DNA of 64,000 nt from Candidatus Binataceae bacterium (GTDB taxonomy: Bacteria > Desulfobacterota > Binatia > Binatales > Binataceae). This document shows, in pieces, positions 19,603 to 54,635 of the stretch. Position 1 is the stretch's first letter, and each line of letters begins with the position of its first letter. The stretch covers positions 548,090 to 612,089 of the forward strand of contig CAVRNO010000002.1 in the NCBI GenBank assembly GCA_963722605.1. Direction: 5' to 3'. Both the position numbers and the translations under genes were made by a program. The notes beneath the pieces are model-generated. The model was not told where the DNA came from. It saw nothing but the letters and a program-made list of their open reading frames with translations, and did not search any database.

Positions 19603-20403
19603 TGGAATATCGAATCACACCGGGCAGATTGGAAATCGGCGAGTTCTCGCTCTACTACGAGCGCGTCGGCGCCGGCCCGCCGATCGTCTTCATGCACGGG
19701 CTGGGCGGCAGCCATCTCTCATGGTGGCAGCAAGTGCCCTACTTCATGCGATCGTTCGAATGTATCACGGTTGACCAGCGCGGCTTCGGCCTTTCGCCCG
19801 ACCCCGACGGCCATTTCAATCGCGCGCATGCCGAGCGATCTCGCCGCCCTGCTCGACCATCTTAAGATCGATACGGCCGTGCTGGTCGGGCAATCGATGG
19901 GCGGATGGACGATCGCCGGCTACGCGCTCGAGCATCCCGAGCGCGTCGCGGCGATGGTGATGGCGGATACACCGGCGGGAATTTTCACGCCTGAGATGAC
20001 GTTCGAACGTCCGCGCGAACCGCTCGCCGTCGATGCGACGCCACCGATCGGGTCGCTGCCGACCTACGCCGCCGATTATTTTTCGCGGAGCCCCGAGATG
20101 GCGTTTCTGTACGACGAAATCCGGATTCATGGCGCGCGGCCTCCGGCCGACGCGGGCATGCGGCTAATCAGCCTGCGCTACGATCTGGACGCGGTGAAGC
20201 GACGCCTGACGATGCCGGTACTGTGCATGGTGGGCGAGGAGGACACGCTTATCAGGCCCCAGATCGTCAAGGCGCTGGCATCGGCGCTCCCGAATTCGCG
20301 ATTGCGCACGGTCCCCGGCAGCGGCCATTCGATCTATTTCGAGAAGGCCGCGGTCTTCAATCAACTGGTGCGCGATTTCCTCGTCGAGATCGGGCAGGGG
20401 TGA
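19603..20403 (+). CDS. alpha/beta hydrolase, apparent frameshift near 19818
   Basis: The N-terminus (MEYRITPG...FMHGLGGSHLSWWQQ) is in ORF 19503..19865. The remainder (GQSMGGW nucleophile elbow, ...PGSGHS) is in ORF 19564..20403. The stop TGA is the centre of a palindromic repeat. Confidence 0.65.
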   Translation, partial: WNIESHRADWKSASSRSTTSASAPARRSSSCTGWAAAISHGGSKCPTSCDRSNVSRLTSAASAFRPTPTAISIARMPSDLAALLDHLKIDTAVLVGQSMGGWTIAGYALEHPERVAAMVMADTPAGIFTPEMTFERPREPLAVDATPPIGSLPTYAADYFSRSPEMAFLYDEIRIHGARPPADAGMRLISLRYDLDAVKRRLTMPVLCMVGEEDTLIRPQIVKALASALPNSRLRTVPGSGHSIYFEKAAVFNQLVRDFLVEIGQG

Positions 20404-20458
20404 CCCCTGCACTCAGTATTAGGGCCGCGCTCCGTTGTCGCGCGCGGCCCCTGCCGCG
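20394..20458. repeat. REP/MITE-like nested palindromic element, copy A
   Basis: GCAGGGGTGACCCCTGC palindrome, then CAGTATTAGGGCCGCGC-TCCGTTGTC-GCGCGCGGCCCCTGCC. Shares core motifs with copies at 22993, 25290 and 54605. Confidence 0.7.
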
Positions 20459-20514
20459 GGCGAGGCATAGATGATGAAACGAAATAGCGCGGAATTCGTC
20501 GATTTGTTGGGTGA

Positions 20515-21326
20515 GTGACGCGGGACTATAATCAAGGCGTTATGGGTCGTATCGCAAATGCCCTGGCGGCCTTCGGGCTGGCGGCGGCTATCGCGGGATT
20601 GGCCTCCTGCGAGCCGGTGCAGAATCCTTATGGAACCGCCGGTGCGGCGAAAGTGGCGCCTGTGGGGATCTCGAGCCGCTCCAATTCGAGTCTGCCGCCG
20701 CCGTCGAGCGCGGGCACAGTTGCCGGCGGCACGATCGATTCGCCGGACAGCCAGGGTCTGTCCGATTATCTCAAGCATCACTCGCTGCCGCTGGTCGGGG
20801 CGCAAGTCGTCACCAGCCCGAGCGGCGGCAAGCAGGTAATTCTGTTCGGTTTCGTCGCAAGCGAGTTCGGCAAGGCTGACGCCGAGCAGAAGGCTCGCCG
20901 CTATCTGAACGATCCGTCGATGGTGGTGGACAACCGGATCAAGATCAGCCCTGAACTGGGCGGGGGCGGATCGACGGGCAACGGAGTTCCGTCCGCGAAT
21001 GGGGCGGCGCTGACGGCTCCGATCCGGGCGACGCGACCGGCTCGCTCCAGGATTATGAGAACAACGAACCGCCCGCCGCGCAGGCCTACCAGCAACAACG
21101 GCAGTATCAGCAGTATCAGCAATACAACAGCGCGCCGCCCAGCATGCTGAGCACCATCCTTCCGCTGCTGCTCGGCGGAGGCGTGTCGATGGGCAGCGGC
21201 GGCTTCGGCGGAGGTACGGGTGGATTCAGTTCCGGTTACGCGCCGGGTTACGGCAGTTACGGCTATCCAACTTATCCGCCGCCGATGCCGGGTTCCGGGT
21301 TCGGCGCGCCGGGATACCCCTACTGA
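20515..21326 (+). CDS. BON-domain lipoprotein with Q/Y-rich and G/Y-rich C-terminal tail; apparent frameshift near 21000
   Basis: Lipobox (LASC). BON-like segment (LKHHSLPLVGAQVV...VILFGFVASEFGKADAEQKARRYLNDPSMVVDNRIKIS). The tail (QAYQQQRQYQQYQQY...GGGVSMGSGGFGGGTGGFSSGYAPGYGSYGYPTYPPP) reads in the +1 frame and joins ORF 21144..21326. Confidence 0.5.
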
Positions 21327-21362
21327 TTGGGCCGCAGGCCGTCGATCGATCGGCCGCTCGTT

Positions 21363-22157
21363 CTATCTCGCCAGCTTGAACCGCTCGCCCAAGAACACCT
21401 GGCGCACTTCGTCGCTGGCGACGATGTCGCGCGGCTTGCCCTCGAACAAAATCTTGCCGGCGTGAATGATATAAGCGCGATCGATGATCGACAACGTCGC
21501 GTGCACGTTGTGATCCGACATGAGCACCCCGATGCCGCGCTCTTTGAGATAAGTTACGACGCGCTGAATCTCGATGACGGTGATCGGATCGATGCCGGCG
21601 AACGGCTCGTCGAGGCATAGGTACACCGGATCGAGCACGAGCGCGCGGGTGATTTCGACGCGGCGGCGTTCGCCACCGGAGACCACGCCCGCCTTGGACT
21701 TGGCCAGTTTGGCGATTCCGAGTTCGTCGAGCAGCGAATGAAGGCGGGCGTAACGCTCCTCTTCGGTAAGCGGCAGGGTTTCGAGCACGGCCAGCAGATT
21801 TTGCTCGACGGTCAGCTTGCGAAAGACGCTTGGCTCCTGCGGCAGGTAGGAAATCCCGCGGCGCGCGCGCTGGTAGAGCGGCAGAGTCGTGATGTCCTCG
21901 CCGCTGAACATCACTCGCCCGTGGTCGGGCTTGAGCAATCCGACCAGCATGTAGAAGGTGGTGGTCTTGCCCGCGCCGTTGGGTCCGAGGAACCCCACCA
22001 CCTCGCCCGGCTTGACGACTACGTTGACGTTGTCGACGACCGCGCGGCCGCCGTATACCTTGGTCAGGCCTTCACCGCGAAGGGCGAGCTTTTCGGCCTT
22101 TTCAGCCGTGGTGTTGTCGCCGATCTCGCCCGATTTAATGCTTCCGACGTTTGCCAT
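21363..22157 (-). CDS. lptB: LPS export ABC transporter ATP-binding protein
   Basis: Walker A (GPNGAGKTTTF), signature LSGGERRRVEI, and an LptB-type C-terminus (VRQVFLGERF). Confidence 0.85.
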   Translation of the reverse strand: MANVGSIKSGEIGDNTTAEKAEKLALRGEGLTKVYGGRAVVDNVNVVVKPGEVVGFLGPNGAGKTTTFYMLVGLLKPDHGRVMFSGEDITTLPLYQRARRGISYLPQEPSVFRKLTVEQNLLAVLETLPLTEEERYARLHSLLDELGIAKLAKSKAGVVSGGERRRVEITRALVLDPVYLCLDEPFAGIDPITVIEIQRVVTYLKERGIGVLMSDHNVHATLSIIDRAYIIHAGKILFEGKPRDIVASDEVRQVFLGERFKLAR

Positions 22158-22337
22158 TTTCGAACACCGCTTGGGTGACCATCCCAGAACTTATCGGCTT
22201 TGATCGGGATTTGGAACGTGTCGGTGCAATTAGCCGCGCGCCGTTCAAACACGATCGGGCGGCGCGCCGCGGCCGCTGTTATCGATGCGATCCAATTGCG
22301 GCTGTGCTAAATTGCGGCGCGATCGAGGAGGATCCCA

Positions 22338-22625
22338 ATGGTCAAAGGATTATGTTTCGCGAGCGGCGCCATCTTCGGAATCTTGCTTAGCTGTGCCGCG
22401 TGCATGCAGAGCCCGGCGTACAGCGGCGCCGGCTATTACGGTCCTCCTCCCGCACCTCCGCCCGGCAGCCATCCCGCAATCTCGCAAGCGATGAACGATC
22501 TGCAGCATGCGCGCTACGTGCTGCAGGCCGAGGCCGCAAGCGATTTCCGAGGGCATAAGGCCAACGCCGTCGGCTTCATCGACAATGCGCTCGGCGAATT
22601 GCAAATCTGCATGACGATGCCGTAG
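22338..22625 (+). CDS. small putative lipoprotein
   Basis: Signal peptide with lipobox (ILLSCAAC), Pro-rich linker. Confidence 0.4.
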   Translation: MVKGLCFASGAIFGILLSCAACMQSPAYSGAGYYGPPPAPPPGSHPAISQAMNDLQHARYVLQAEAASDFRGHKANAVGFIDNALGELQICMTMP

Positions 22626-22699
22626 CCGCGGCGCACGCGGCTGCTCCCGGGCGCGCTCCGAAGCGACCGGCGATCGGCGCTTTTGCGCGGCGCGATGGG

Positions 22700-23002
22700 A
22701 TGCTACTGGATAGGATCGTGGCCAACGAAAACGAATATGACAGCGAGCGCTTTCCCGGAAATTTCTACCAGGGGATGATTCTCACGCTCGACCGCGCCCG
22801 CGGCCGTGGCGTGGTGCGCTCGCATAGCGGCAAGGAGATCCCGTTCGAGTTTCCCTTCGTGGCCGTAGTGGGCGCGCCACTTGGCGGCAAGATGCCGGGG
22901 ATCGATCTGATCCGCGAAGGCGATATCGTGGGCTTCGATGTCGGCTGGACCTCGAAGGGACTGCGCATCACGACGCTCCATCCTCGGCAGGTGCAGGGGT
23001 GA
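22700..23002 (+). CDS. hypothetical protein (100 aa)
   Basis: ORF only. It ends ...RQVQG with the TGA at 23000..23002 inside repeat copy B. Confidence 0.4.
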   Translation: MLLDRIVANENEYDSERFPGNFYQGMILTLDRARGRGVVRSHSGKEIPFEFPFVAVVGAPLGGKMPGIDLIREGDIVGFDVGWTSKGLRITTLHPRQVQG

Positions 23003-23104
23003 CCCCTGGCCGTTGGCGGCGGCAGCGCAGTATTAAGCCGTTGGCAGGGGCCGCGCGCGACAACGGAGCGCGGCCCTAACGGTGGGTGCAGGGCTCAGCC
23101 CTGC
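22993..23104. repeat. REP/MITE-like composite palindromic element, copy B
   Basis: GCAGGGGTGACCCCTG core. It also has CAGTATTAAG, an inverted copy of the copy-A arm (GGCAGGGGCCGCGCGCGACAACGGAGCGCGGCCCTAA), and a terminal GTGCAGGGCTCAGCCCTGC palindrome. Confidence 0.7.
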
Positions 23105-23739
23105 TGCTGCTTGCGCTGGTACATCAGCCACTGCCTGACGCCCAAGGGGTAGAGCTCGCCCATGATTTCGTAGCCCTTGGAACTGTAGAACGCGACGTTG
23201 GCCTCGGTCCCGGTCTCGAGGTAAACGCCGGCTATCTCAGGCCGCACCAGTGCCTCCAGCGCGAGCCGGTCGAGCAACGCCTTTCCGTAGCCTTTGCCCT
23301 GAAAATCCGGATCGACCCCGAGGGTTTGCAGATACAGATGCGGCTCCTTGGGATGGTGCTGTGCAAGCACACCGACCATATTCATCGCGCGGACCATCCC
23401 GCCCCATCCGACTCCCCGAATCAACCGCGGCAACTGTGGCAGCCCGGCGGTGATCAACCCAAGCACGCCTGAATGGCCCACACCTTCGGTGGCCGCGGCG
23501 GCAACCACGCGTCCATTATGGACCACGCCGAAGACCGGCTGTCCGTTCCGACGCTCCACACCCAGCTGCGCGCGAAACATATCCGCCAGGTGCTCGGCGC
23601 GCGCGACCGGCTCGGTAATATCCGGAAGGATCGCCTTGAAGGCCGGGTCGTTGATGAAGGCGCGGCCGAGCGCGACGGCGGCCTGCTCGTGCTGCTCGGG
23701 GTACAGGCTGGTTACGATCGGTTTTCCATTTTCAGGCAT
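23095..23739 (-). CDS. GNAT family N-acetyltransferase
   Basis: Acetyl-CoA binding motif (LQTLGVDPDFQGKGYGKALL). The likely start is MPENGKPIV. It ends ...QQQG with the stop (TCA on +) at the centre of the GCAGGGCTCAGCCCTGC palindrome. Confidence 0.7.
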   Translation of the reverse strand: MPENGKPIVTSLYPEQHEQAAVALGRAFINDPAFKAILPDITEPVARAEHLADMFRAQLGVERRNGQPVFGVVHNGRVVAAAATEGVGHSGVLGLITAGLPQLPRLIRGVGWGGMVRAMNMVGVLAQHHPKEPHLYLQTLGVDPDFQGKGYGKALLDRLALEALVRPEIAGVYLETGTEANVAFYSSKGYEIMGELYPLGVRQWLMYQRKQQQG

Positions 23740-23817
23740 TTCTTTTTTTCCTCGATTCAATCCGACGGCCTGGTGAGAGCGCGCCCGACTGCGTCGCGCC
23801 ATCCGGCGAGCAATTCT

Positions 23818-25261
<1,444 letters not shown>

Positions 25262-25289
25262 CGTCGTATTCTCCCGCGCCAATGTTACA

Positions 25290-25367
25290 GCAGGGGTGAC
25301 CCCTGCACCCAGTATTAAGGCCGCCCGCCGTTGGCGGGCGCGACCCCTGCCAACGGTTTAATACTGC
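25290..25367. repeat. REP/MITE-like palindromic element, copy C
   Basis: GCAGGGGTGACCCCTGCACCCAGTATTAAGG...CCCCTGCCAACGGTTTAATACTG. The CAGTATTAA / TTAATACTG arms are inverted. It lies in the divergent glpK/gshA intergenic region. Confidence 0.7.
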
Positions 25368-25482
25368 GCCGCCGTCGCTCACGGCCCCCCCGCCCGCCTT
25401 GTGCTTGCCTCGTATGTTTGCTGACGCCATTATACCCGCTTGGCGGAGCCTCTTCTCAGGCAGTCGCGCTTGGCTTTGATTC

Positions 25483-26847: not shown

Positions 26848-27813
26848 ATGAAACTCAGGTTCACACAAATCCACGTCACGATTCTGAACTTCGTCCTGGT
26901 CGGAGGACTGGCGATCGTTCTGGCCATGTGCGTGCGGGACGTCATCGAGCGCAGCGTTTCAAACGAATCCGACGTTCCCGCCGTGTCGTCGGCCACGCCC
27001 AAGGCCGCGGGCGGCCTACGCGCGCGCGCCTACTACGACGCGATCGTCAAGCGTGACATCTTCAACGAGGTCCCGCAGGAGACCGGACCGGCGCCGGTGG
27101 TGGAAGAGGACCTGAATATCAAGCTGATCGGCACTTCGCTGCTGAGCAAATCGAAACCGTACGCGATAATCGAGGATCAGGCGAACAACGAATCGCTCTA
27201 CCAGGTGGGAGAGGACATCCCGGACGCGGGCAAACTGGTAGGCGTCGAAAACGGCCGCGCGATCATCGACCGCGGCGGCCATCGCGTCGCGCTTGAGATC
27301 CCCGCCGCCGACCTTCCCCAAGCGCCGCCTTCCGTCGTGGGCGGGCCGATTAAGCCGCCCCGGTTCAGAGGCCTTCCCGCTGCCATGCGGCGCGGGTTGC
27401 CCGGATTTCACCATCCTGGGCGCGGTAATAACGACGCCAAAAACGACGACAGCAGCGCCAGCAAGACCAAACTTGAGCTGAAGAAAGTCGGCCCCGGAAA
27501 ATTCCAGGCCAGCCGCGCCGACGTTCAGCAGACGATGGAGAATCCTGCCCAGTTCTTCTCGCAGATGCGCGCGATGCCCCATTTCGTCAACGGCAAGACC
27601 GACGGCTTCTCGATCTCCCAGGTCGCGCCCGGCTCCGTCTTCGACCAGCTAGGGCTGCAAAGCGGTGACCTGGTCACCTCGATCGACGGCAAGCCCGTGA
27701 CCAATCCAATGCAGGCGATGGTCCTGATGCAATCGATGAAAACCCAGTCGGCGCTCGACCTCACGATCAATCGCGGCGGCGCGCCGACCTCCGTTCATCT
27801 CGATCTGCGCTGA
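26848..27813 (+). CDS. GspC-like membrane-anchored PDZ-domain protein (type II secretion protein C-like)
   Basis: N-terminal TM helix, an HR-like segment (KPYAIIEDQANNESLYQVGEDIPDAGKLVGVENGRAIIDRGG) and a C-terminal PDZ-like segment (VAPGSVFDQLGLQSGDLVTSIDGKPV). No other gsp genes are in the window. Confidence 0.5.
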   Translation: MKLRFTQIHVTILNFVLVGGLAIVLAMCVRDVIERSVSNESDVPAVSSATPKAAGGLRARAYYDAIVKRDIFNEVPQETGPAPVVEEDLNIKLIGTSLLSKSKPYAIIEDQANNESLYQVGEDIPDAGKLVGVENGRAIIDRGGHRVALEIPAADLPQAPPSVVGGPIKPPRFRGLPAAMRRGLPGFHHPGRGNNDAKNDDSSASKTKLELKKVGPGKFQASRADVQQTMENPAQFFSQMRAMPHFVNGKTDGFSISQVAPGSVFDQLGLQSGDLVTSIDGKPVTNPMQAMVLMQSMKTQSALDLTINRGGAPTSVHLDLR

Positions 27814-27816
27814 GCG

Positions 27817-28881
27817 ATGGAACTCAGGGCTGCGCACCACGGCGAGCGCGACGAGGTGCTCGACCTGCTCGCGCGATGGTACAACGACCGCGAATTTTTC
27901 GCCCGCTACAACCATAACGATTCCCGCTTTCGCGATGCGTTGTGCATAGTCGCGCGCGACCGCGGCCAACTGGTTTCCACCGCCCAGATTTTCGATCGCA
28001 CCATCAATCTCGACGGGCAAGCGGTTCCGATGGGCGGCATCGGCTCCGTCTTCACCCTCGAGGAGTACCGGCACAAGGGCGTCGCCTCGGCATTGATGCG
28101 CCTGGCGGTCGATACGATGGTGCGCGAGGGCTTCGAAGTATCCCTGCTGTTCGCGGAGCGCCTGACCTTCTACAACCAGTTCGGATGGCGCGAGATCGAG
28201 CGCAAGTTCAGCCTCCTCGGCGGCGCCGCTTCACTGAACGCGCTCAATCGTTTCGTCATCGACAGTTTTGAGATTGGGCGCGACCTTGCCGAAGTTGCCG
28301 CGATCCATCGCGGCTACAGCGGCAAATTCAATGTCACCGCGGTCCGCGACGACGCCGCGTGGCGCGCGAATCTCAAATTCGCCGGCAATCAGCCGCTCGA
28401 TCCCGGCGAAGGCTCCGAGGAGTATTTCGTGGTGTGTCGCGACGGCCCGCGAATCGCGGCGTACGCGCGGGTGACGCGCTTTTACGGCCTCTCGATGGTG
28501 ATGGAGTTCGGATACGCCGCCGGCGCGGGTGACGCGATGCTCGCGACGTTCAAGTGCCTCGGCCAAGAGGCGGCCTGCCTGCCGGTCACGAGCCGGCGCA
28601 TCGGGGACCATCGGCGCGCCGCCCTGCTCCACAGCGCATCCGCGCCCGCGGAACCGTCGACTCTCGTCACCCATACCGCGCACGATCCCGCACTGGAAAA
28701 AGCGCTCGACGCCGCGGGATGCCCGGTCGTGCATCACACCGACAACTTTTACATGTGGCAGGTGCTTGCGCCCGATAAACTCGCGCGCCGGTTCGCGATC
28801 AAGCCGGAGGCGGCGTCAGCGCGCGCGTTCGATATCTTCGCCGATTCGCGATCCGTGTTCTGGACCGCCGACCGCTTCTGA
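27817..28881 (+). CDS. GNAT-domain acetyltransferase family protein (354 aa)
   Basis: GNAT core (GGIGSVFTLEEYRHKGVASALMRLAV) plus a ~200 aa C-terminal extension. Confidence 0.6.
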   Translation: MELRAAHHGERDEVLDLLARWYNDREFFARYNHNDSRFRDALCIVARDRGQLVSTAQIFDRTINLDGQAVPMGGIGSVFTLEEYRHKGVASALMRLAVDTMVREGFEVSLLFAERLTFYNQFGWREIERKFSLLGGAASLNALNRFVIDSFEIGRDLAEVAAIHRGYSGKFNVTAVRDDAAWRANLKFAGNQPLDPGEGSEEYFVVCRDGPRIAAYARVTRFYGLSMVMEFGYAAGAGDAMLATFKCLGQEAACLPVTSRRIGDHRRAALLHSASAPAEPSTLVTHTAHDPALEKALDAAGCPVVHHTDNFYMWQVLAPDKLARRFAIKPEAASARAFDIFADSRSVFWTADRF

Positions 28882-28996
28882 CCAATCATCCCGTCGCTGA
28901 CGGGCTTCCGCAAGCGCGCCGCTCGCCGCGGCACGAGTTGTTGGCTACTATGATTTCGCTCTTTCACTTTTTCACTTTTTTCACCTGGTCGATGGG

Positions 28997-30280: not shown

Positions 30281-30370
30281 GTCCAAGCTGCCACGCTTTG
30301 CTCCGCGGGGACATTCTCGATTAGTTTCTCAAGCTCGTACCTGCTAGCCTTGAGCCTGTAGTTCCACCTG

Positions 30371-31165: not shown

Positions 31166-31231
31166 CAGACGCGACCCGGCGCGATATAGTTTGAGCCGGC
31201 AAACTCGCTGCTTGATGCCGACTCCATTGCG

Positions 31232-32155: not shown

Positions 32156-32163
32156 CAGCACCG

Positions 32164-38300: not shown

Positions 38301-38526
38301 CCGGGGACACCAGCATGGTGCATGCGCCGCCCGGCGGGCTTCGGAGCAGACTCGACTCCGCGCGGCCTCAGTGAAGTCGAAGTGTTTTGCGTAGAGAAAG
38401 ATCCGGGATTCTTCGCGTCGCTCAGAATGACACAAAACAAGAGCGCGCCAGCGCGTATCGCTGCAGCACCGGCATCCGGCTATGCAGAGCGCTCCCTTTA
38501 GGGGAACCGATAGCTGCGCGAACTTT

Positions 38527-40532: not shown

Positions 40533-40544
40533 ATTCTCTATCCC

Positions 40545-41568: not shown

Positions 41569-41670
41569 TTTGGTGTCTCTCCGTCCGTTTATTTCGTTCA
41601 AACGACCATCCGCGGGAATAGAAATCCCCGCGCCCTCTGAAAGCTTACTCATTGTAGAAAAACTGCTCAT

Positions 41671-42043
41671 TTCGGCTCAAACGACTAATCCATCGGCAGA
41701 GATTCGCTCTCGACCGATATTTGCTCTTGATTGGTTACGTTTACTTCAGACCATGAACTAACGTCTATGACCAATTGCGTTATTATCCGCACGCTTCGTG
41801 CCTATGTCAAGAGCCTTGCGCCCTCATAAGTTCTACTCAGCTCGAAATTTTACCTATTCACTCTGGTAAAGCGGTTCAAGACGAATAAAGGCGTTAAGGC
41901 GCGTGGTATTATTATTTTCGGCCGTAGTCTGCCGATTAGCGCTACTAAGTGCTGATTTGGTAGCGAGAGAGAAATAGAAAGTAGTGCAGCAATCGTTTGG
42001 ATTGGTGTAGAGTAGCTATAGCGACAGATGTTTCGACGCTTTG
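41671..42043. promoter_or_regulatory. AT-rich (~45% GC) intergenic region upstream of flp
   Basis: Compositional contrast with the background. The likely flp promoter and the hisA-side boundary of the inserted cassette. Confidence 0.4.
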
Positions 42044-42781: not shown

Positions 42782-42786
42782 GCGGT

Positions 42787-44785: not shown

Positions 44786-44816
44786 GCGGTTTCATCCCTC
44801 TAAATTGACTTGCGAT

Positions 44817-46073: not shown

Positions 46074-46079
46074 CGCCAA

Positions 46080-46250
46080 CTACGCCCCGCTTCTTCGCGC
46101 GCGCACGACGCGCGGATGCCCCGCGAGACCGTTTATCACAGAGACGGCCCGCAAGCCCGCTTCCTCGAACAGCTTCGCCACCGCCGCCCCCTGCCCCACC
46201 CCCATTTCCACGATCAGCTCGCCATCGCGCGCAAGGATATCGACGCTCAT
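46080..46250 (-). pseudogene. duplicated remnant of the prmC 3' end (56-codon ORF with its own ATG)
   Basis: 46093..46236 is a near-copy of 47071..47218, with ~4 substitutions plus a divergent ~30 bp stretch that has an 11 bp indel. It translates to ...GELIVEMGVGQGAAVAKLFEEAGLRAVSVINGLAGHPRVVRARRSGA*, and the stop abuts murA. Confidence 0.5.
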
Positions 46251-46251
46251 T

Positions 46252-47052
46252 CTACGGGTGGATTGCGGGCAAACTCATTCCGTGAGCATCAATATGAACT
46301 GTCCGAATGATCGAAAGCAGTGGGAACTTTCCGTCGTGCGGCGGCGGAACAGATTCAGCGTAGTCACTTCCCCCCATGCCCGTGGAAATCCTGCAGGGGC
46401 GAGGCTGCAATATGTTTATCGCCCAGTGCCATGCCGCGCGGCCACAGTCGATCCGCAGCAGAGCCTCATGCCCGTCTAACTGCATGGGGCTGAGCGACGA
46501 GCAGACGGGGCGGCCTGTCTCCGGGGCAGTCTTAATTTCATCTTCGTGAAGTCGCGACTGAAATTCAAACGCCTTCTTGATTTTCTCGGCCGCCACTTCT
46601 GGAGTCGTGCTCTCACTATGGACGAGAACCCGCAGCACGAGCTCGCCCTGGGTGACCGGAGTGTCACCGACCAGATCGACTACCTTGGCCAAGTCTGACG
46701 GCGGATTGTCGAGACCGAAGGGATCCAAGACAGCAGGAGTCCGGAACTCTCTCTCGTTCACCCGCAGCGACGGCGGGTAACGAAATGAAAGCCCTGTGGC
46801 TGGGTCGTGGAACTCTCGCCAACCACTTGTGCCGATCCGCGCCTGTTCGGTGGGAACCGCAGCCGGCATCGCGGTCGCCGCGACCATCTCCAGCGGTTCT
46901 GGGCCCGCGTCAAACCGGATGCCCGTCGGGCCGGGGTATAAGATCAATGCGGCTGGGCGTTCAGCCGCTTCGACTTGCTGCGGACCATTGCACAGTGCCG
47001 CACAAATGGCGATGCAGAGAAAGAAAGCGGCGGATGTGTGTCCAAATATCAT
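46252..47052 (-). CDS. hypothetical secreted protein (266 aa) inserted between prmC and its duplicated 3' end
   Basis: Signal peptide (FFLCIAICAALC). No recognised domain. The 3' part is lower in GC. Confidence 0.5.
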   Translation of the reverse strand: MIFGHTSAAFFLCIAICAALCNGPQQVEAAERPAALILYPGPTGIRFDAGPEPLEMVAATAMPAAVPTEQARIGTSGWREFHDPATGLSFRYPPSLRVNEREFRTPAVLDPFGLDNPPSDLAKVVDLVGDTPVTQGELVLRVLVHSESTTPEVAAEKIKKAFEFQSRLHEDEIKTAPETGRPVCSSLSPMQLDGHEALLRIDCGRAAWHWAINILQPRPCRISTGMGGSDYAESVPPPHDGKFPLLSIIRTVHIDAHGMSLPAIHP

Positions 47053-47063
47053 TGCTTTCGTAC

Positions 47064-47942
47064 TTAAACCCTTCGCGCGCGCACGACGCGCGGATGCCCC
47101 GCGAGATCGTTTATCACAGAGACGACCCGCAAGCCCGCTTCCTCGATCAGCTTCGCCACCGCCGCTTTCGTTGCATCCCCCTCCCCCACTTCCACGATCA
47201 GCTCGCCATCGCTCGCAAGATGCCGCGGCGCGCCCGCTGCAATTCTGCGAAAGATGTCGAGCCCTCCCGCTCCCGCGCTCAGCGCAACGCGCGGCTCGAA
47301 GGCGCGCACCTCGGGTTCCAGCGCGGCGATCTCCGCGTCATCCAGGTAAGGCGGATTGGAGACTATCAGCTCGAAAGACTCAAGCGCCGCTCCGCCGTCC
47401 AGGACGTCGAAGCAGTCGGCGCGCCGGAACGTCACCCGATCCTCGACCCGATGCCGCCGCGCGTTGCGCGACGCGATCGCAATCGCGCCGGCGGAAATTT
47501 CCACTGCCGTCACGCGAACGCGCCGAGCGTTGACCGCGATTGCGATAGCGATTGCCCCCGACCCGGTGCCGATGTCGAGCACGCGCGCGTCCGGCGCTCC
47601 GGCGATAAACTTGAGCGCCGCGTCAACGACTAGCTCGGTCTCGGGCCGCGGAATCAGGACCGCCGGACTTACCTCGAAATCGAGCGAGTAGAATTCCTTG
47701 CACCCCAGGATGTACGCGACCGGCTCGCGTTTTTCGCGCCGCACGATCATCGTCTCGAATTTGTCTAGCGTCGCGGGCGATAGATCGATCGAACCCGTGA
47801 TAGCGGCTTCGCGCGAGACTCCCGCCGCCGCGGCAATCAGAAGTTCAGCGTCGAGCCGCGCCGATTCGATGCCGCTTGCGGCGAGCCTGCGCGCGGCCTT
47901 GTCTATCTCCTCCAACGCGCGCCGCGCGGGCACCCGGTTCAT
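47064..47942 (-). CDS. prmC: release factor glutamine N5-methyltransferase
   Basis: HemK/PrmC motifs (VLDIGTGSGAIAIAIA, IVSNPPY). It immediately follows prfA. Confidence 0.85.
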   Translation of the reverse strand: MNRVPARRALEEIDKAARRLAASGIESARLDAELLIAAAAGVSREAAITGSIDLSPATLDKFETMIVRREKREPVAYILGCKEFYSLDFEVSPAVLIPRPETELVVDAALKFIAGAPDARVLDIGTGSGAIAIAIAVNARRVRVTAVEISAGAIAIASRNARRHRVEDRVTFRRADCFDVLDGGAALESFELIVSNPPYLDDAEIAALEPEVRAFEPRVALSAGAGGLDIFRRIAAGAPRHLASDGELIVEVGEGDATKAAVAKLIEEAGLRVVSVINDLAGHPRVVRARRV

Positions 47943-47949
47943 GGCGATG

Positions 47950-49011
47950 CTACGCGCTGAGCGCCTGCTCCTGATCGTAGGCCGCCAGCGCGTCGATAAT
48001 CGGATCGATTTCGCCGTCGAGAAACTTGTCGAGCTGATGAATCGTCACGTTGACGCGATGGTCGGTCACGCGCGATTGCGGAAAATTGTAGGTGCGGATG
48101 CGCTCGGAACGGTCGCCCGTACCCACCATCGAACGCCGCGTCTGCGCGATCTTCGCCTGCTGCTCCGACTGCGCCGCCTCGAGCAGCCGAGCCCGCAGGA
48201 TCTTCAACGCCTTCGCTTTGTTCTTGTGCTGCGACTTTTCGTCGCGTTGGATTATCACCATGCCGCTCGGGATATGCGTGATGCGCACCGCCGAGTCGGT
48301 GGTATTGACGCTCTGGCCGCCCGGTCCCGACGCGCGCATCACGTCGATTCGCAGGTCCTTGGCTTCGTTGATATTGACCTCGACCTCGTCCGCCTCGGGC
48401 ATCACCGCGACGGTGACCGCGGAGGTGTGGATGCGCCCCGAGCCTTCGGTTTCAGGTACGCGCTGCACGCGATGCACCCCGCCTTCGTACTTGAGCCGCG
48501 AGTATGCGCCGCGTCCGCTCACCAGCGCGATCACTTCCTTGATTCCGCCAAGCCCGGTCTCGCTCAGGCTGAGCGACTCGATCTTGAACCCGTGGCGCTC
48601 GGCGTAGCGCGTGTACATCCGATACAGGTCCCCGGCAAACAGCGAGGCCTCCTCGCCGCCGGTTCCGGCGCGGATTTCGAGGATCACGTTCTTTTCGTCG
48701 TTGGGATCGCGCGGCGTGAGCAGCTCCTTGAGTTTGTCCTCGACCGCGGCAAGATTTTTCTGCAACGCCGGCATCTCGGCCTTGGCCAGCTCGCGCAAGT
48801 CGGCGTCGTCGCCATCGAGGATCGACTTGTGGCCCGCGATCTCGTCGGCGATGCGGATATATTCGCGGGCGCAATGCGCCGCCTCGGAAAGCTGCGCGCG
48901 CTCTTTGGCCAGCCGGGCGTATTCGCGCTGATTGCCGAGCGTGGCCGGATCGCTGAGCTTGCGCTCCAGCTCCGCCACCCGCTCTTCTATCGCGCTTGCC
49001 TTATCCAGCAT
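47950..49011 (-). CDS. prfA: peptide chain release factor 1
   Basis: GGQ motif (RASGPGGQSVN), PxT-region, full-length RF1 similarity. Confidence 0.9.
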   Translation of the reverse strand: MLDKASAIEERVAELERKLSDPATLGNQREYARLAKERAQLSEAAHCAREYIRIADEIAGHKSILDGDDADLRELAKAEMPALQKNLAAVEDKLKELLTPRDPNDEKNVILEIRAGTGGEEASLFAGDLYRMYTRYAERHGFKIESLSLSETGLGGIKEVIALVSGRGAYSRLKYEGGVHRVQRVPETEGSGRIHTSAVTVAVMPEADEVEVNINEAKDLRIDVMRASGPGGQSVNTTDSAVRITHIPSGMVIIQRDEKSQHKNKAKALKILRARLLEAAQSEQQAKIAQTRRSMVGTGDRSERIRTYNFPQSRVTDHRVNVTIHQLDKFLDGEIDPIIDALAAYDQEQALSA

Positions 49012-49192
49012 CGGATTCTTTGCACGCTTGTACTCATCTGGGCGTTAGTCTGTACGTTCGCGTGGCAGTGAGAAGGATCGCCTGGGCGAAATGGGGCAAC
49101 GGTAGTGGAAAGTCCCTGAAAAAGCCGTGCCGGTAGATTCTCCCCCGCGCACCCGGGTGCGTAGCGCACCGCAGGCGGCGGGAGTTGCTATG

Positions 49193-49432
49193 CTACTTCT
49201 CGGCGGCGGTTGCCGCCGTCTTTTCCGCCGGCTTCTTGATGCCGTACTTGCGATTAAACCGCTCGACCCGCCCCGCGGTATCGACCAGGCGCTGCGTGCC
49301 GGTGTAAAAGGGGTGACACTTCGAGCAGACCTCGACCTGCAACTGCTTGAGCGTCGAGCGCGTTTCGAAGGTGTTGCCGCACGCACAGACGACTGTGCAG
49401 CGACGGTATTCAGGATGGATTCCAGCTTTCAT
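49193..49432 (-). CDS. rpmE: 50S ribosomal protein L31
   Basis: MKAGIHPEY start, CxxC...CxxCH zinc ribbon (CACG...[10 protein letters not shown]). Confidence 0.85.
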
Positions 49433-49459
49433 TTTTGCTTCTCGAACTCTGTTTCCTCT

Positions 49460-51058
49460 TGCGTCAGAGGATACCATCGGGAGCTATCGCACACAATTCG
49501 CGCGCCGCGACCGCCCTTTCGGGCTTTTCGGCTCGCAATCGCCGTGGCTGCCTCGACTGCGGTTATTTTAATCACAATATTCCCGATTGCCAGCTTCGCC
49601 GCGCCAGCCGCCACGGCTGCGCCAACGACCGGCTTCGCGCCCGATGATCGAACGCTTTTCGCGCCGATCGTCGATCTCGCGCCGCCCGGCCCCGCGCGCG
49701 CGTCGCGTGCGATCGCAATCCTGAACCGGCAGCTCGATTTCCAGCGCAAGATCTCGTTCCACCCCACGCTTGCCCCGGCGCTCCAGGATGTCCTCGATCT
49801 GCTTCCGCCGCGCCAATCGACGATGATCCGCGCCGCCGCCCTCTACTCGAAACCGTCGATCCCGTGGCGCGACGAGCCGGACGGTACGCATCAGATTTGC
49901 GTCGCCGGACGGCCAAGTGACGGCGAGTATTTGTACACGCTGTCCCCCGGCTGGGATCGGCCGGAGGAGCCCGCGCAATTTTCGGGCGTGTTCGGCCTCA
50001 AGCCCGGCGCCGATTCCTCTCCCACCGACATTTCGAGCGTCACCGGCACGCTCGCCGGCGAGCTGATGATCGATACCTACGGTCTCGGCGGGCTGGTTGA
50101 CGCCGCGGCCGATGCGATCCGCGAGGTTCACGGCGATCTGAGACCGCCGTGGGATTCTTCGCCCGGCGCATTCAACCATCACGACCGAGCCGCGCTCGAC
50201 AAATTCCACCGCCAGATGCCGCATCTTGCGGCGAAGTTCGACCACTACTTCAAATTCAACAACCTGCTCGACGAGTTCAATTCGCCCGCGGGCCCCGTCG
50301 TGCTGCTGAACGTCGATGCCGAAGTTCGCCAGGACGCGCTCAGGAAATATCCGTTGCTGTACGATTTCTATCGCAAAGTCGTACCCGCGGTGACGGCGAA
50401 ATCCGCTATCCTGGATTCGCACGGAAATTTCTGGGTGCGCGAGGGCTTCGACCACGGCCGCATCCACTTCACCATGATGATTCGGGGCGGACTGCTCACG
50501 CCGTTCAACGCCGCGATGCAACCGGCCGGCGACGGTATTGCGCTCAATCGAATCGCGCGCGGCGGTTACCGGACGTTGTCGTCGGCGCAGGTGACCAGTC
50601 TCGCGATGAATTTCGGGCTGGCCAACGTTGGATTTGCAACCGACTACCGCCGCGACCCGGGCTCGGTGACGTTCGTCAACCGGATGGACGCGGTCCCCCA
50701 AATGATCGCGCCACCCGGCGTGCATCAGGTGATGGACTTGATCGCGGGGGACTTTCTGCGCGCGCTGGCTACCGAAAGCGGCGGCATGAACGTAAGCCTC
50801 AGCTCGCGGATGCTCCCCAGCGGGATGTACGATTTCTCGGGCGGCGTCACCGCGCAGTTGAATTACTCGCCCGCGCTGGAGTTGCTCGCGCGAATCGGCG
50901 ATGCGATCGCGAACAGGCACAACGACCAGGTTCGCGCCGAGGAACGCGCATTCGGCGAGGAACTGTTCGACGCCTTCGTCGCCGATTACAATGATGCGCG
51001 TGGGGCAATTGTCGCCCTGGATTCGGATAAAGACAGCCGACAGGAAAAATCCAAATGA
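49460..51058 (+). CDS. hypothetical secreted protein (~530 aa)
   Basis: Signal-peptide-like segment ([29 protein letters not shown]). No recognised domain. The start is uncertain; the ORF opens at 49127, but its upstream part overlaps rpmE. Confidence 0.5.
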
Positions 51059-51756
51059 GCCGCGCACGACGCAAACGGTTTTTCACCGCGATGCTCTTTG
51101 CCGCCGCAATTCTCACCGCGGGATGCGCCGCCGAGGACAAGCCGCCGCCGAGCATGCCTGACGCCGGCCCGCAAGCGAAGCTGCTCAGCGATTTGTCGGC
51201 CGTCTCCGACGCCCCCGTCGGTCCGCTCGTCGCCAATGCGGTTCCTGCCCCCGGCGAAGGACTGTTACACGATCAAGCCGCGGTCTCGGCCGGGCCCCGC
51301 ACCTTTGAGACCGAGCCCGGCATGTCGCGCCAGATCGGCACCGAAAGAACTCCCAGCACGGTGCGCCTGCTGAACGCGAAAGCCGCCAAGTTCGGGATTT
51401 TTTCCACCGCAATACTCGATCGCCTCTATGCGCACCTCAGCATCGCCGAAAAATCCGAGGAGATTTCGCAAACCAGGCTGCCCACCGAAATCAAGCCCGT
51501 CGTCATCACCGCAATCCTTGACAAAACCGGCAAGCTCACCGAACTCATCCTCGAGCAACACTCCGGCAAGGCGAAAATCGATCTGATGATGCTCGAGGTC
51601 TGCAAGAAGGGTCTCTGGTACGAGAATCCTCCCGCCGCCGCGCTTTCAGGCGACGGCAACTACAAGCTGACTATCCGCATGAAGCTCGAGAACTACGGCA
51701 CCGTGGACGAGCGTCATTGGACCTTTATCACCGACCTCGCACTCGGCATCGGCTAG
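51055..51756 (+). CDS. hypothetical lipoprotein
   Basis: Lipobox (LTAGC). Its start overlaps the upstream stop (ATGA), which suggests translational coupling. Confidence 0.5.
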   Translation: MSRARRKRFFTAMLFAAAILTAGCAAEDKPPPSMPDAGPQAKLLSDLSAVSDAPVGPLVANAVPAPGEGLLHDQAAVSAGPRTFETEPGMSRQIGTERTPSTVRLLNAKAAKFGIFSTAILDRLYAHLSIAEKSEEISQTRLPTEIKPVVITAILDKTGKLTELILEQHSGKAKIDLMMLEVCKKGLWYENPPAAALSGDGNYKLTIRMKLENYGTVDERHWTFITDLALGIG

Positions 51757-51768
51757 CCGCGCCCCTCG

Positions 51769-52947
51769 ATGCCATCCACGCAGCAGCCGCCGCCTGCTTC
51801 TGCTACAATCGCCGCCGTGGATTCGCTCGACGACTACATCCCGCGCCCGGGCCTCGCCGTCCCGATCGTCACGATTTTCGACGACCGCGGCCGCATCCTC
51901 GAAGACCAGCAGCGCGCTGTCGTTCGCTTTGCGCTCCAGAATGGCGCCGGCGCCGACATAATTTTTGCCGCAGGCACCACCGGCGAGTGGGACCGCATCG
52001 ACAACCCGCGCCGCCAGGCGGTCGCCCGAATCGCGATCGAGGAATGCCGCCGTGCGCGCGCCTCCGCCGCCAAGAAGATCGAGGCATGGGCCGGCATCAC
52101 CGCGCATACCCGAAGCGACACGCTCGACAATCTCAGCCACGCGCTGAAGGCCGGCGCCGACGCGGCCGTGGTCGCGCCGCTCTCGATCAAGGACGTCGAG
52201 CATCCCGCCGAATTCGTCGAGCGCGACATCGGCGCGGTGTTCGAGCGCGCGGGCCGGATGCTTGCGCTGTTCCTCTACGACAACGCCGGCATCGCCGCGC
52301 CCGGCAAACCGCCGCATCTGCACACGCGCGACGTCAAGGCGATGAGCCGGCTGCCATACGTGCGCGGGATAAAAGTCACCGCCGGCAAAACCGTCATCGG
52401 CAACTACACTCGCGCCGCGTCGCACTTCAAGGCGGGCCACGAATTCGCGATCTACGCCGGCAACCCCTACCTCATCTTCGATTTGTTCGCCCCGCCCGAA
52501 GGCGTCGGCGATCGCATGCGCCATTACTGGAACCGCTACCTGACTCAGCGCACGCGCCCCTACGGCGTCGTTGCCGGCGCGGGCAACGCGATGCCGCGCG
52601 AATGGCAGCGCGCGTGGCAGGTCTGCCGCTCGGGCGACATCGAATTGATGCGGTTGTATGCCGAGGCGCTCGGCGAATTTCGCGTCGCATGCACTTTCAG
52701 GCGCGGCGCGCGGGCATGGCGCCCGACCATCGCATCGCTTAAGGCCTCGCTAAAGGAAATGGGCGTCATCGAGAGCGACGCCGTCGGCGCGGGAACCCCG
52801 GCGCTCAGCGACATCGAACGCCGCGAATTCTCCGCGCGATTCTCGGCCCTGCGCGAGCGCGCCGCCGAGACGCTGGAGCGCGGATGGGTCAGCGAATACG
52901 ATTCGGGGATTCGTGCCGGCGCAAAATCGGTTGGGAGCAATGGCTGA
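51769..52947 (+). CDS. dihydrodipicolinate synthase/N-acetylneuraminate lyase (DapA) family protein with ~100 aa C-terminal extension
   Basis: DHDPS-family GTTGE motif (AAGTTGEWDRI), TIM-barrel-like pattern. Confidence 0.65.
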   Translation: MPSTQQPPPASATIAAVDSLDDYIPRPGLAVPIVTIFDDRGRILEDQQRAVVRFALQNGAGADIIFAAGTTGEWDRIDNPRRQAVARIAIEECRRARASAAKKIEAWAGITAHTRSDTLDNLSHALKAGADAAVVAPLSIKDVEHPAEFVERDIGAVFERAGRMLALFLYDNAGIAAPGKPPHLHTRDVKAMSRLPYVRGIKVTAGKTVIGNYTRAASHFKAGHEFAIYAGNPYLIFDLFAPPEGVGDRMRHYWNRYLTQRTRPYGVVAGAGNAMPREWQRAWQVCRSGDIELMRLYAEALGEFRVACTFRRGARAWRPTIASLKASLKEMGVIESDAVGAGTPALSDIERREFSARFSALRERAAETLERGWVSEYDSGIRAGAKSVGSNG

Positions 52948-54598
52948 AGAAAAACTCGATGTCGTCGGATGTGGGAGCATGGTGGTGGACATGTTCTACC
53001 GCACCCCGCGCATAATCCGCGCCGACGAAAAAATTCTGCTCCGCGCGCATACCGCCAGCGCCGCCATCGAACGCACCCAGGTCGGCGGGCTGGTCCTGAA
53101 TCATCTCGGATGGGGCCGAATCCTCGGGCTGAAAACCGGCGTCTTCGGCAAGATGGGCGACGACCGCAACGGCGAGTTCCTCCGCGACGGGATGGATCGC
53201 CTCGGCATCCGCCATCACCTGACGTTCGACGGCACCGCCAGCGCGTTTGCCAACATCTTCGTGGACGCCGCCGGCGATCGCGCCATCTACATGGCGCGCG
53301 GCGCGACCGGCGAGCTCACTCCCGCCGAGGTTCGCAGCCGCCACGGCGCATTCATCCGCCGCGCCAATCTTGTTTCGACCGAGATTTCGCAACTCCCCAT
53401 TCGCACCGTGCTCGCGATTCTGCTCTTCGCGCGAACCCATTCGATTCCCACCGTGCTCGACGTTGACGTGCCGCCCTCCGACGCGATCGGATCGCTCGGC
53501 ACGCGCACCGAACTCGAACGCGCGCTGAAGCTCGCGACCTACCTCAAGCCCGCCAAAGCCGCCGCGCGCGAAATCGTCGCCGGCAACGGCCGCGATCCGC
53601 TCAAGATGGCCGAGGCGATTCGCGCCCGGTACGGAAATCGCGCGGTCGTAATTACCGAGGGCGACAAGGGATGCTCGATAGCGGCGCGCGAGACTTCCGT
53701 TCGCGTGCCCGCGTTCAAGGTCAAGCAGATCGATTCGACCGGCGCCGGCGACGCGTTTTTGGCCGGCGTCTTTGCCGGCCTTCGGCTGGGGATGCCGTGG
53801 GACAAAATCGGGCGGCTCGCCAACGCCGCCGGAGCGGTCGCGGTCACGCGGCTCGGCGCGTTTCCGTCGGGATTTGAGGTGCGCGAGGAAATCCTCGACT
53901 TGTACGGCGAGCCGATCGCGTTGCCCATTGCGCGGCGCGATAGCGAGCCGCGCGAAGCCGCCATCGTCGATTCGAGCACTGAAGTCGAGAAATTTTTCGA
54001 TCTCGCGATCGGCGAACTCGCCGCGCTTCGCGGTGGATTGAACATCGCCGCCATCTCGCGCACCGTCGAGATTATTCGCACCGCGCTCGGCCGCGGCGGC
54101 CGCGTCCACGTGACCGGAGTCGGCAAGCCCGAGCACGTCGCGCGTTACGCAGCCAGCCTGTTCTGCTCGGTCGGCACGCCCGCCACTTTTCTACACGCGA
54201 CCGAAACCCTGCACGGCAGCCTCGGCCAGGTGCATCCGCGCGACATCGTCATCGCGATTTCAAACAGCGGCAACACCGACGAATTGCTCTCCACCGCCAC
54301 CGCCATTCGCGAACAGGGCGCGCAGTTGATCGCGATCACCGGCAACAAGGATTCCGCGCTGGCCCAACTCGCCGACCTCGTCATCCACGCCCCCGTCCCC
54401 AATGAAGGCGGCGGGCTCGGACTCGTGCCGCGCATCAGCGTGCTCGGCGAAGTCTTCGTGCTCGCGGGATTGTCGGTCGCGCTCGAACTCGCCCACGGCC
54501 TCACGGTCGAGGAGTACAGCCGATGGCATCGAGCGGGCACAATCGGCGAAGCCGCCCGCCGTCTCGCCGAGACCCGCAGCTCCACCCGCCGCGCCTAA
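52913..54598 (+). CDS. bifunctional PfkB-family sugar kinase / SIS-domain sugar-phosphate isomerase fusion
   Basis: PfkB signature DSTGAGDAF and an N-terminal GG-like motif. The C-terminal SIS domain is KpsF/GmhA-like (VHVTGVGKPEHVARYAASLF, AISNSGNTDEL). The probable start is the internal MAEEKLDVVGCG (~52940). Confidence 0.65.
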   Translation: MPAQNRLGAMAEEKLDVVGCGSMVVDMFYRTPRIIRADEKILLRAHTASAAIERTQVGGLVLNHLGWGRILGLKTGVFGKMGDDRNGEFLRDGMDRLGIRHHLTFDGTASAFANIFVDAAGDRAIYMARGATGELTPAEVRSRHGAFIRRANLVSTEISQLPIRTVLAILLFARTHSIPTVLDVDVPPSDAIGSLGTRTELERALKLATYLKPAKAAAREIVAGNGRDPLKMAEAIRARYGNRAVVITEGDKGCSIAARETSVRVPAFKVKQIDSTGAGDAFLAGVFAGLRLGMPWDKIGRLANAAGAVAVTRLGAFPSGFEVREEILDLYGEPIALPIARRDSEPREAAIVDSSTEVEKFFDLAIGELAALRGGLNIAAISRTVEIIRTALGRGGRVHVTGVGKPEHVARYAASLFCSVGTPATFLHATETLHGSLGQVHPRDIVIAISNSGNTDELLSTATAIREQGAQLIAITGNKDSALAQLADLVIHAPVPNEGGGLGLVPRISVLGEVFVLAGLSVALELAHGLTVEEYSRWHRAGTIGEAARRLAETRSSTRRA

Positions 54599-54604
54599 GC
54601 GCAG

Positions 54605-54635
54605 CCTTAATACTGGGTGCAGGGCTCAGCCCTGC
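54605..54635. repeat. REP/MITE-like element, copy D (partial, inverted orientation)
   Basis: CCTTAATACTGGGTGCAGGGCTCAGCCCTGC is the reverse orientation of the GCAGGG..CCCTGCACCCAGTATTAAGG core. An adjacent 11 bp palindrome GCGGAACCCAC/GTGGGTTCCGC at 54645..54668 sits between convergent genes. Confidence 0.65.

Follow-up and report, generated by a model that had tools for sequence, protein, structure and literature searches.

The intergenic regions of a 64,000-nucleotide stretch of a Candidatus Binataceae genome (contig CAVRNO010000002.1, positions 548,090 to 612,089; this whole stretch is called the window here) contain copies of a dispersed, structured, mosaic repeat family that has one conserved core, lies at gene ends and varies in its presence between species. 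With a probability of about 0.7, we read these as noncoding hairpin repeats specific to the Binatus/Binataceae lineage (candidate phylum Binatota) that work like repetitive extragenic palindromic (REP) sequences, bacterial interspersed mosaic elements (BIMEs) and the REP doublets forming hairpins (REPINs), and that spread as nonautonomous elements. The family is new, while its kind is well known; noteworthy are the single core in two architectures, the stop codon encoded in a hairpin loop, the conservation across at least 30 species and the fact that no REP-associated tyrosine transposase (RAYT) is recognizable nearby. A literature search found no published description of repeat elements in Binatota.

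One core, two architectures

Every copy carries a core of about 30 nt, the sole part common to all architectures, which consists of a 7-bp hairpin with a 3-nt loop (H, 17 nt long; GCAGGGS-TGA-SCCCTGC, with a loop of TGA or TCA) and, after it, a single-stranded box rich in A and T, ACYCAGTATTAAG. At the seventh position of the H stem, 286 copies have a G-C pair, 86 have C-G, 3 have T-A and 8 have no pair. Around this core the repeats take two forms, called type I and type II, and five copies lie in the window:

Copy A, 20394..20458, plus strand: type I half element (type I model positions 1-62, E 1e-15), with H at 20394-20410 (TGA loop at 20401-20403), core ACTCAGTATTAGG, hairpin GGCCGCGC..GCGCGGCC at 20424-20452 and tail CCCCTGCC.
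Copy B, 22993..23104, minus strand: whole type I inverted doublet (model positions 1-112, E 2e-27), with H' at 22993-23009, CAGTATTAAG at 23028-23037, the central hairpin at 23049-23076, a degenerate CCCTAACGGTGGGT and H at 23088-23104.
Copy C, 25290..25386, plus strand: type I lacking the distal hairpin (profile E 2e-27), with H at 25290-25306, ACCCAGTATTAAGG, the alternative central hairpin GCCCGCCGTTGGCGGGC, then CCCCTGCCAACGG and TTTAATACTG.
Copy D, 54606..54693, minus strand: type II (profile E 2e-22; BLAST matches reach 54703), with, on the minus strand, an A/T-rich leader, hairpin GCGGAACCC-ACCG-TGGGTTCCGC, the box CACCTCCTTGG, which resembles an anti-Shine-Dalgarno (anti-SD) sequence, H (54619-54635 on the plus strand) and ACCCAGTATTAAGG.
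Copy E, 15868..15905, plus strand: decayed core GCAGGGCTGGACCCTGC followed by CCCGGTATTAAAAC (profile E 1e-5 to 0.02).

Profiles built from the copies of other genomes recovered these five sites (A at 20394-20455, B at 22992-23104, C at 25290-25385, D at 54606-54693 and E at 15868-15905) and no further copy in the window. At up to 2 mismatches, GCAGGGSTSASCCCTGC has six matches in the window (15873, 20394, 22993, 23088, 25290 and 54619) where 0.07 are expected, and 0 of 100 shuffles reach six; at up to 1 mismatch, CAGTATTAAGG has four, compared to 0.15 expected. The copies also match one another at length. Thus, 20394-20455 and 25290-25351 are direct repeats with 89% identity, and inverted matches join 20394-20455 to 23043-23104 (62 nt, 90% complementarity), 23008-23106 to 25288-25386 (99 nt, 84% complementarity) and 25290-25324 to 54601-54635 (91%). 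The first of these inverted matches is the arm of copy A that a preliminary description of the window, made from its letters alone, had recognized within copy B.

In general, the window copies fold more stably than their shuffles, with z-scores of -1.3 to -4.3, most of them between -2.5 and -4.3; copy D, in which a second hairpin, GCGGAACCCACGGTGGGTTCCGC, is present, scores -4.0 as DNA and -4.3 as RNA. The minimum-energy fold of copy B, proposed earlier to be a nested, composite palindrome, pairs both ends: H forms at each end and CAGTATTAAG faces its complement, which is degenerate in this copy. In the predicted fold of copy C, CAGTATTAAG pairs with a near-exact complement, TTTAATACTG.

Shuffle controls and the long mutual matches confirm that the four sites flagged in the preliminary description are real and that the modules it named lie where it placed them. 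Its boundaries need amending, since the fourth copy is not 31 nt long, running instead to about 54693 (roughly 60 nt longer) and belonging to a different subfamily, and since the decayed copy at 15868-15905 had been overlooked. The stem GGGCCGCGC...GCGCGGCCC that it considered shared is found only in copies A and B; copy C has GCCCGCC/GGCGGGC instead. The separate element type at 54.6 kb and the stop codons supplied by hairpin loops, discussed below, had both been missed.

Type I is an inverted doublet of about 115 nt (copies A, B and C), built in the order H, ACC, CAGTATTAAGG, central hairpin, CCCCTGCCAACGG, CTTAATACTG, a spacer of about 20 nt and a second H. Its central hairpin exists in two versions that are one compensated pair apart, CCGCGC..GCGCGG or GCCCGCC-GTT-GGCGGGC. 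Common variants retain only the first 55 nt, form tandem arrays or have a half or additional H in front.

Type II, represented in the window by copy D, is built from an A/T-rich leader, the hairpin GYGRAACCC-N4-GGGTTYCRC, the box C(A/G)C(T/C)TCCTTSG, H and ACCCAGTATTAAG. Most type II copies, but not D, end with GATGC-GGGAC-TTCG-GTCCC-TGTTAGAAC or with a GCAAAATGGCG/CGCCATTTTGC hairpin, and the loop of this downstream hairpin is usually cUUCGg. Three pairs of the type II hairpin have both partners changed (28 cells), and 99.2% of the cells of this hairpin are paired across 62 copies, a value that no shuffle equals; when the partners were slid by 1 to 3 columns, pairing fell to 28-56%. The type II box resembles the 3' end of 16S rRNA. 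As a side observation, type II reads as a near-perfect Shine-Dalgarno sequence on one strand (for example, CCAAGGAGGTG on the plus strand at 54640-54650 of the window) and as the anti-SD-like CACCTCCTT on the other, and the box changes together with the subfamily of the hairpin beside it, CCTCC accompanying GCGGAACCC and CTTCC accompanying GTGAAACCC.

Larger composites, about 270 nt long, are made up of a pair of type II units (about 95 nt each) inverted around a center of about 75 nt. They are found in L016, L101 and L068 (L-numbers denote core-containing loci from other genomes), and there are 7 such inward-facing pairs of cores about 200 nt apart. Doublets are matched in frequency by single units, half units and tandem arrays. 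In all, the family is a mosaic in which upstream modules (U1, U2, tandem H and half H) join downstream modules (D1, D2 and D3) in set combinations. These combinations, together with tandem arrays of the H-core-hairpin unit, are what is expected of BIMEs, and the inverted doublets of REPINs have their counterparts in copies B and C and the 7 inward-facing composites.

Distribution across Binatus/Binataceae genomes and soil metagenomes

The census was an exact scan for a 28-nt core, GCAGGGSTSASCCCTGCACYCAGTATTA (the hairpin plus ACYCAGTATTA), and its genome and metagenome counts are lower bounds. Among contigs of one genome per species, the exact core was found in at least 116 stretches from at least 30 metagenome-assembled genomes (MAGs), named Candidatus Binatus, Binataceae or "uncultured delta proteobacterium" (Microflora Danica, palsa and SPRUCE), and it was found in at least 120 Joint Genome Institute metagenome contigs from soil and peat; there were 0 matches in viral contigs. 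Along single contigs of 3.3-4.6 Mb the matches are scattered over the full length. The 1.78 Mb of locus sequence contains 369 exact hairpins. Once the anchoring matches are excluded, exact hairpins occur at 0.07-0.08 per kb, and at 0.06 per kb in the window itself; from this density we extrapolate to some 200-350 exact hairpins per genome. Coverage of the window by 11- and 12-mers frequent in the loci was dropped as a measure, being swamped by GC-rich codon words.

These counts, and the filled and empty orthologous sites described below, uphold the earlier proposal of a dispersed, modular family of the REP/BIME kind or that of miniature inverted-repeat transposable elements (MITEs), with further copies that are not the product of local duplication. 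A 17-nt hairpin, a 30-nt core, high copy number and window copies that are intergenic or overlap only last codons are all as in REPs. That the similarity arose by chance in GC-rich DNA, or by duplication within this region alone, can hardly be entertained as an explanation. Three copies do lie within 5 kb (20.4-25.4 kb), but shuffle controls exclude chance, the fourth is 29 kb away and hundreds more occur in other genomes and metagenomes.

Six loci (L037, L039, L043, L046, L063 and L082) that carry the core come from a MAG labelled Candidatus Acidiferrales (SMAG_U11458). Two of them, L039 and L043, share stretches of 0.5-2.5 kb with Binatus contigs at 80-84% identity, and the label may reflect a binning or naming error.

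Gene ends and loop-encoded stop codons

Copy A lies between codirectional genes, copy B fills the entire gap between two convergent genes and copy D takes up nearly all of a 102-nt gap between convergent genes. Copy C is found between divergent genes, 29 nt upstream of a start codon at 25261, and copy E lies ahead of a hydrolase gene on the minus strand, 18-55 nt before its start codon at 15850. Tallied over the window and the first 116 loci, the context was convergent in 38 cases, codirectional with a gene reading into the TGA side in 38, codirectional in the other orientation in 23 and divergent in 18. This shows a preference for 3' ends without strict orientation and a location that is nearly always between genes.

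The association with gene ends extends to the stop codon itself. Three window genes terminate in the repeats:

19564..20403, plus strand: alpha/beta-hydrolase gene; its last two codons and stop (Q-G-TGA) come from H of copy A.
22700..23002, plus strand: open reading frame (ORF) of 100 amino acids with no Pfam match; its stop, TGA at 23000-23002, is the loop of H' in copy B.
23095..23802, minus strand: GNAT acetyltransferase gene; its stop (TCA on the plus strand, 23095-23097) is the loop of H in copy B.

All three end with ..Q-G-stop in a hairpin-loop TGA, and the arrangement of the GNAT gene and copy B is identical in L045. An exact-protein look-up of the hydrolase beside copy A returned no record. 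When genes were called by third-position GC content, 10 stops fell at offset +7 (the loop TGA) and 11 at -3/-2 (abutting H or sharing its first G), while other offsets had 1-2 and at most 4; in a length-based ORF analysis, the loop and abutting offsets accounted for 15 and 11 of 60 stops. Consistent with the abutting class, a stop triplet stands right before H at 13 of 142 unique junctions, compared to a background of 2.2% (p = 1.5e-5). The core also has TAA in its second frame (TATTAA), and the TGA frame is used far more than the other frames.

Stops supplied by repeats are known in kind, since Di Nocera et al. (PMC3733652) noted that REP termini often supply the TAG stops of flanking ORFs; here it is the loop that supplies the stop. 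This coupling may result from selection in a compact genome, in which only sites at or after a stop would be tolerated and an in-frame TGA would be the shortest extension. Alternatively, it may reflect real targeting of stop codons. One can envision that the hairpin and the AGTATTAA core form the recognition and cleavage module of a non-RAYT enzyme that inserts at or just after stop codons, with the TGA loop and TAA box built to land on gene ends, although we regard this specific proposal as improbable.

The same observations bear on whether these are instead host elements, acting in cis and kept by selection, their spread being incidental: either hairpins of the 3' untranslated region (UTR) that affect transcript stability, transcript termination or translation termination, or palindromic binding sites for nucleoid or regulatory proteins. 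The compensatory changes in the stems, the RNA-type cUUCGg tetraloop of type II, the likeness of the CACCTCCTT box to the 3' end of 16S rRNA, the enrichment at convergent gene ends and the tight coupling of stop codons to the hairpin are all in keeping with a host role. REPs of E. coli that lie no more than 15 nt from a stop codon have been reported to stall ribosomes and trigger tagging by transfer-messenger RNA. However, the repeats face either way with respect to the genes beside them and are also found at 5' or divergent sites (copies C and E), many copies are truncated or decayed, and their presence differs between close species beside the same genes. Nor does the window offer a conventional regulatory signal: a promoter scan found no sigma-70 consensus at the window copies, no U-tract terminator was found there, and no Rfam family matches. 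With Rfam 15, a tRNA was the only hit in the window at the gathering threshold; the regions of the elements matched unrelated families only weakly (E of 0.6 or more), never near a gathering score. On balance, we consider it unlikely that these are primarily host elements.

Several other identities were rejected. A terminator scan called none of the elements an intrinsic terminator, and the hairpin is followed by ACCCAG rather than a U-tract. A clustered regularly interspaced short palindromic repeat (CRISPR) array would have regular spacing and spacers, and there are neither. Integron attC sites likewise form hairpins after stops, but these copies are dispersed, in both orientations and beside housekeeping genes, with no cassette array. 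In a selenocysteine insertion sequence (SECIS) the TGA would lie upstream of the hairpin; here it lies inside the loop, and orthologs end there.

Gain and loss at orthologous sites

Comparison of orthologous sites has shown that the repeats are gained or lost between related species. The window is syntenic with L045 (MFD01299.bin.2.36) at 86-87% nucleotide identity and with L092 (MFD09286.bin.2.99) at about 80%, which assigns it to a Binatus-like member of Binatota. The site of copy A is empty in L045, where 38 unrelated nt stand in place of 83 nt in the window; correspondingly, the hydrolase ends ..EIGYAK-stop in L045 and ..EIGQG-stop in the window. Copy B is kept at the orthologous site of L045 with 90% identity, the same as its flanks, and at the position of copy C, L092 has other repeats. 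Two window operon genes lie 3 nt apart (TGA GCG ATG, 27811-27819; compared region, 27810-27841), and in L092 a type I unit begins at the stop (CGATAG/CAGGGG; the slash marks the junction). Among the other loci, L003 has two convergent stops directly adjacent (CTGTAG/TCAG), and L016 and L101 have 255-271 nt of repeats exactly between them; AAGATAG/AAGCGG in L035 corresponds to AAGATAG/CAGGGGTGACC... in L049; and a type II unit present in L059 and L091 is absent from L080. A separate difference, 465 nt in L045 (2848-3312) for 13 nt in the window (21329-21341), involves an L045 insert with no core hairpin.

Inverted composites that are filled at some sites and empty at others invite comparison with classical MITEs, that is, internally deleted derivatives of insertion sequences (IS) with long terminal inverted repeats (TIRs), moved by a DDE transposase acting on double-stranded ends. 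The composites of about 270 nt, filled in L016, L101 and L068 and empty at the same site in L003 and L100, together with the 7 inward-facing pairs, would fit such elements, and type I is likewise an inverted doublet. Yet despite the inverted ends, there is no target-site duplication at any of the four comparable junctions (L003/L016, L035/L049, window/L092 and window/L045); single units, half units and tandem arrays are as frequent as doublets; no same-ended element with an internal ORF is found in 1.78 Mb; and the recurrent protein families in the neighborhood of the repeats consist of housekeeping paralogs and include no transposase. We therefore think classical MITEs very unlikely.

A possible single-stranded DNA mechanism and the search for its enzyme

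A stable hairpin beside a single-stranded box is the arrangement recognized by single-strand-specific HUH enzymes (Y1 transposases, Rep proteins and relaxases). We favor mobilization in trans as single-stranded DNA because the core hairpin and the A/T-rich box are common to all copies, and the lack of target duplications fits the HUH class. We imagine that an enzyme of the HUH/Y1 type or another, with its gene elsewhere, would recognize the core hairpin and adjacent box in single-stranded DNA, and that the repeats would thereby have spread as nonautonomous elements. After insertion, the hairpins would be transcribed with neighboring genes as 3'-UTR or intergenic hairpins, and they may protect mRNA 3' ends or dampen convergent transcription. 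The cUUCGg loops and the convergent-end enrichment suggest RNA-level selection for 3'-end protection or insulation.

Several results weigh against this interpretation. Six frames of the window and of 236 core-containing loci (1.78 Mb) were searched for a transposase. A regular expression for the HUH and Y..NP motifs found no Y1/RAYT ORF there; phmmer with E. coli TnpA-REP (query sequence verified against PDB 4ER8) and IS608 TnpA found none, with a best E of 0.56; and a profile of 109 RAYT sequences (108 from among 150 diverse RAYTs collected by an exhaustive representative search, plus E. coli RayT) found none, with a best E of 0.31. If a RAYT were flanked by two of about 200 cores per genome, the chance of missing it in 236 loci would be about 10%. 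The GTAG/CGTC tag of classical REPs accompanies only 1 of the 369 hairpins. In addition, the filled and empty junctions are not single clean insertions, in that flanks have diverged by 14-20% and some inserts are clusters of several repeat types. Given these diverged flanks, clustered inserts and missing target-site duplications, transposition is inferred and not demonstrated. Finally, the exact identity of the 28-nt core in at least 30 species, even though flanking genes are only 80-87% identical, and the retention of copy B at the identity of coding DNA fit host-level selection as well as mobility.

The suggestion that the repeats are targets of a RAYT/IS200-like transposase, made in the preliminary description, is thus weakened by the search, and that the mobilizing enzyme is specifically a RAYT now seems doubtful. 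A word-indexed protein search with E. coli RayT was of no help here, its best 120 matches all being from Enterobacteriaceae. An autonomous version, sought in 1.78 Mb as inward-facing cores 0.4-3.5 kb apart around an ORF, yielded one coincidental pair, enclosing two ordinary-looking genes with relatives at other loci. Clustering of the proteins near the repeats revealed no transposases, only large families of metabolic paralogs (luciferase-like monooxygenase, SDR, enoyl-CoA hydratase and acyl-CoA dehydrogenase). One lead comes from Di Nocera et al. (2013, PMC3733652), who reported that the TIRs flanking RAYT-like "TIRYT" genes in several phyla share GGGGWSAS. The sequence GGGGTGAC within H fits this motif; the match is of 8 nt only and is a lead rather than a test, and no TIRYT gene was found near the repeats.

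Comparison with known repeat systems

Like the REPs and BIMEs of E. coli and other enterobacteria, the Binatia repeats number in the hundreds, are imperfect palindromes that are short and rich in G+C, lie strictly outside genes with a bias toward 3' ends, form mosaic clusters with other motifs in alternating orientation and keep their stems in variants through compensatory changes. They differ in belonging to another phylum, in having no sequence similarity to those REPs, no GTAG tag and no RAYT found nearby, and in their hairpin, which has a perfect 7-bp stem and a TGA/TCA triloop followed by the conserved A/T-rich single-stranded box.

REPINs in Pseudomonas and enterobacteria were defined together with a cognate single-copy RAYT gene that they flank (Bertels and Rainey; PMC3116915 and PMC3337134). 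The resemblance to that system lies in the full type I elements and 270-nt composites, which are inverted doublets foldable into one long hairpin, in mostly vertical inheritance and persistence across species, and in conserved ends around a variable structured spacer. In contrast, the Binatia flanks contain no RAYT in 1.78 Mb, many copies are single or in tandem, and the arms of type I are asymmetric, hairpin and box being separated by 3 nt in one and by about 18-21 nt in the other.

The GTAG/CGTC-tagged REPs and "TIRtrons" (PMC3733652) share with the Binatia repeats the supply of stops to flanking ORFs by REP termini and the occurrence of REP-like families in many phyla; the Binatia stop, however, comes from the hairpin-loop TGA or lies just before the first G of the hairpin, and not from a GTAG tag. 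The Correia elements of Neisseria, which are MITEs, are similarly small, nonautonomous, intergenic, cotranscribed with their neighbors, equipped with inverted ends and variable in presence between strains. Correia elements have defined TIRs and a TA target duplication, whereas neither duplication nor fixed termini were seen in the Binatia repeats.

Other features of the window

Three further repeat families occur in the window. One lies at 19434-19514 (...CAGAACCCTCGCCTACCGGCCGC..GCGGCCGGCCTCC..CCCGTGAAGTAACGGGCGAGGTG), with matches at 89-93% identity in L003, L029 and L071. Another, a hairpin repeat of the form GGTTCCCCTTYCC-N-GGRAAGGGG.. with a TTAGGG-like tail, has two copies (8850-9020, and also 14550) and is very common in Binatia loci (L005, L015, L081, L090 and L092). 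The last, at 38400-38436 (GATCCGGGATTCTTCGC..GCTCAGAATGACACAAAA), also adjoins elements in L006, L042, L049, L055 and L110.

About 4.6 kb of the window (14938-19593) is absent from the collinear L045, which has about 290 nt in its place. This segment contains a hydrolase gene, two ORFs with lower third-position GC (16295-17911, with no Pfam match, and 18155-19090), copy E and, at its right edge, another repeat; a tRNA gene (13925-13996) lies near it. The segment may be an indel or an island.

A sugar-kinase gene at 23818-25261 on the minus strand is apparently split over two frames: ORF 23818-25005 overlaps ORF 24635-25261 in another frame, and the FGGY_N match covers only residues 4-60 of the latter. 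A frameshift, a pseudogene or an error of assembly could account for this. Farther along, the segments 46093-46235 and 47071-47219, which are separated by 978-984 nt, are near-identical (97% over 95 nt and 93% over 42 nt). They lie in or beside two neighboring genes of the minus strand, 46252-47052 and 47064-47942, suggesting that a tandem duplication or gene conversion took place recently.

Implications

Binatota is an uncultured, globally distributed phylum of soil and peat, and the repeats provide a sequence marker for the lineage as well as natural insertion polymorphisms for comparing strains and species. They also allow a test of whether populations of the REPIN kind exist beyond Proteobacteria where no RAYT is recognizable. 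For annotation, gene callers will report C termini derived from the element (..QG-stop) and spurious small ORFs within the repeats. Were a stop-targeting, non-RAYT enzyme to prove responsible, dozens of Binatia genes per genome would have an element-encoded "-Q-G-stop" C terminus. The tight coupling to stop codons is striking in its numbers. If it reflects targeting, it would point to an unusual insertion mechanism, and if it reflects function, to control of translation termination or of mRNA 3' ends.

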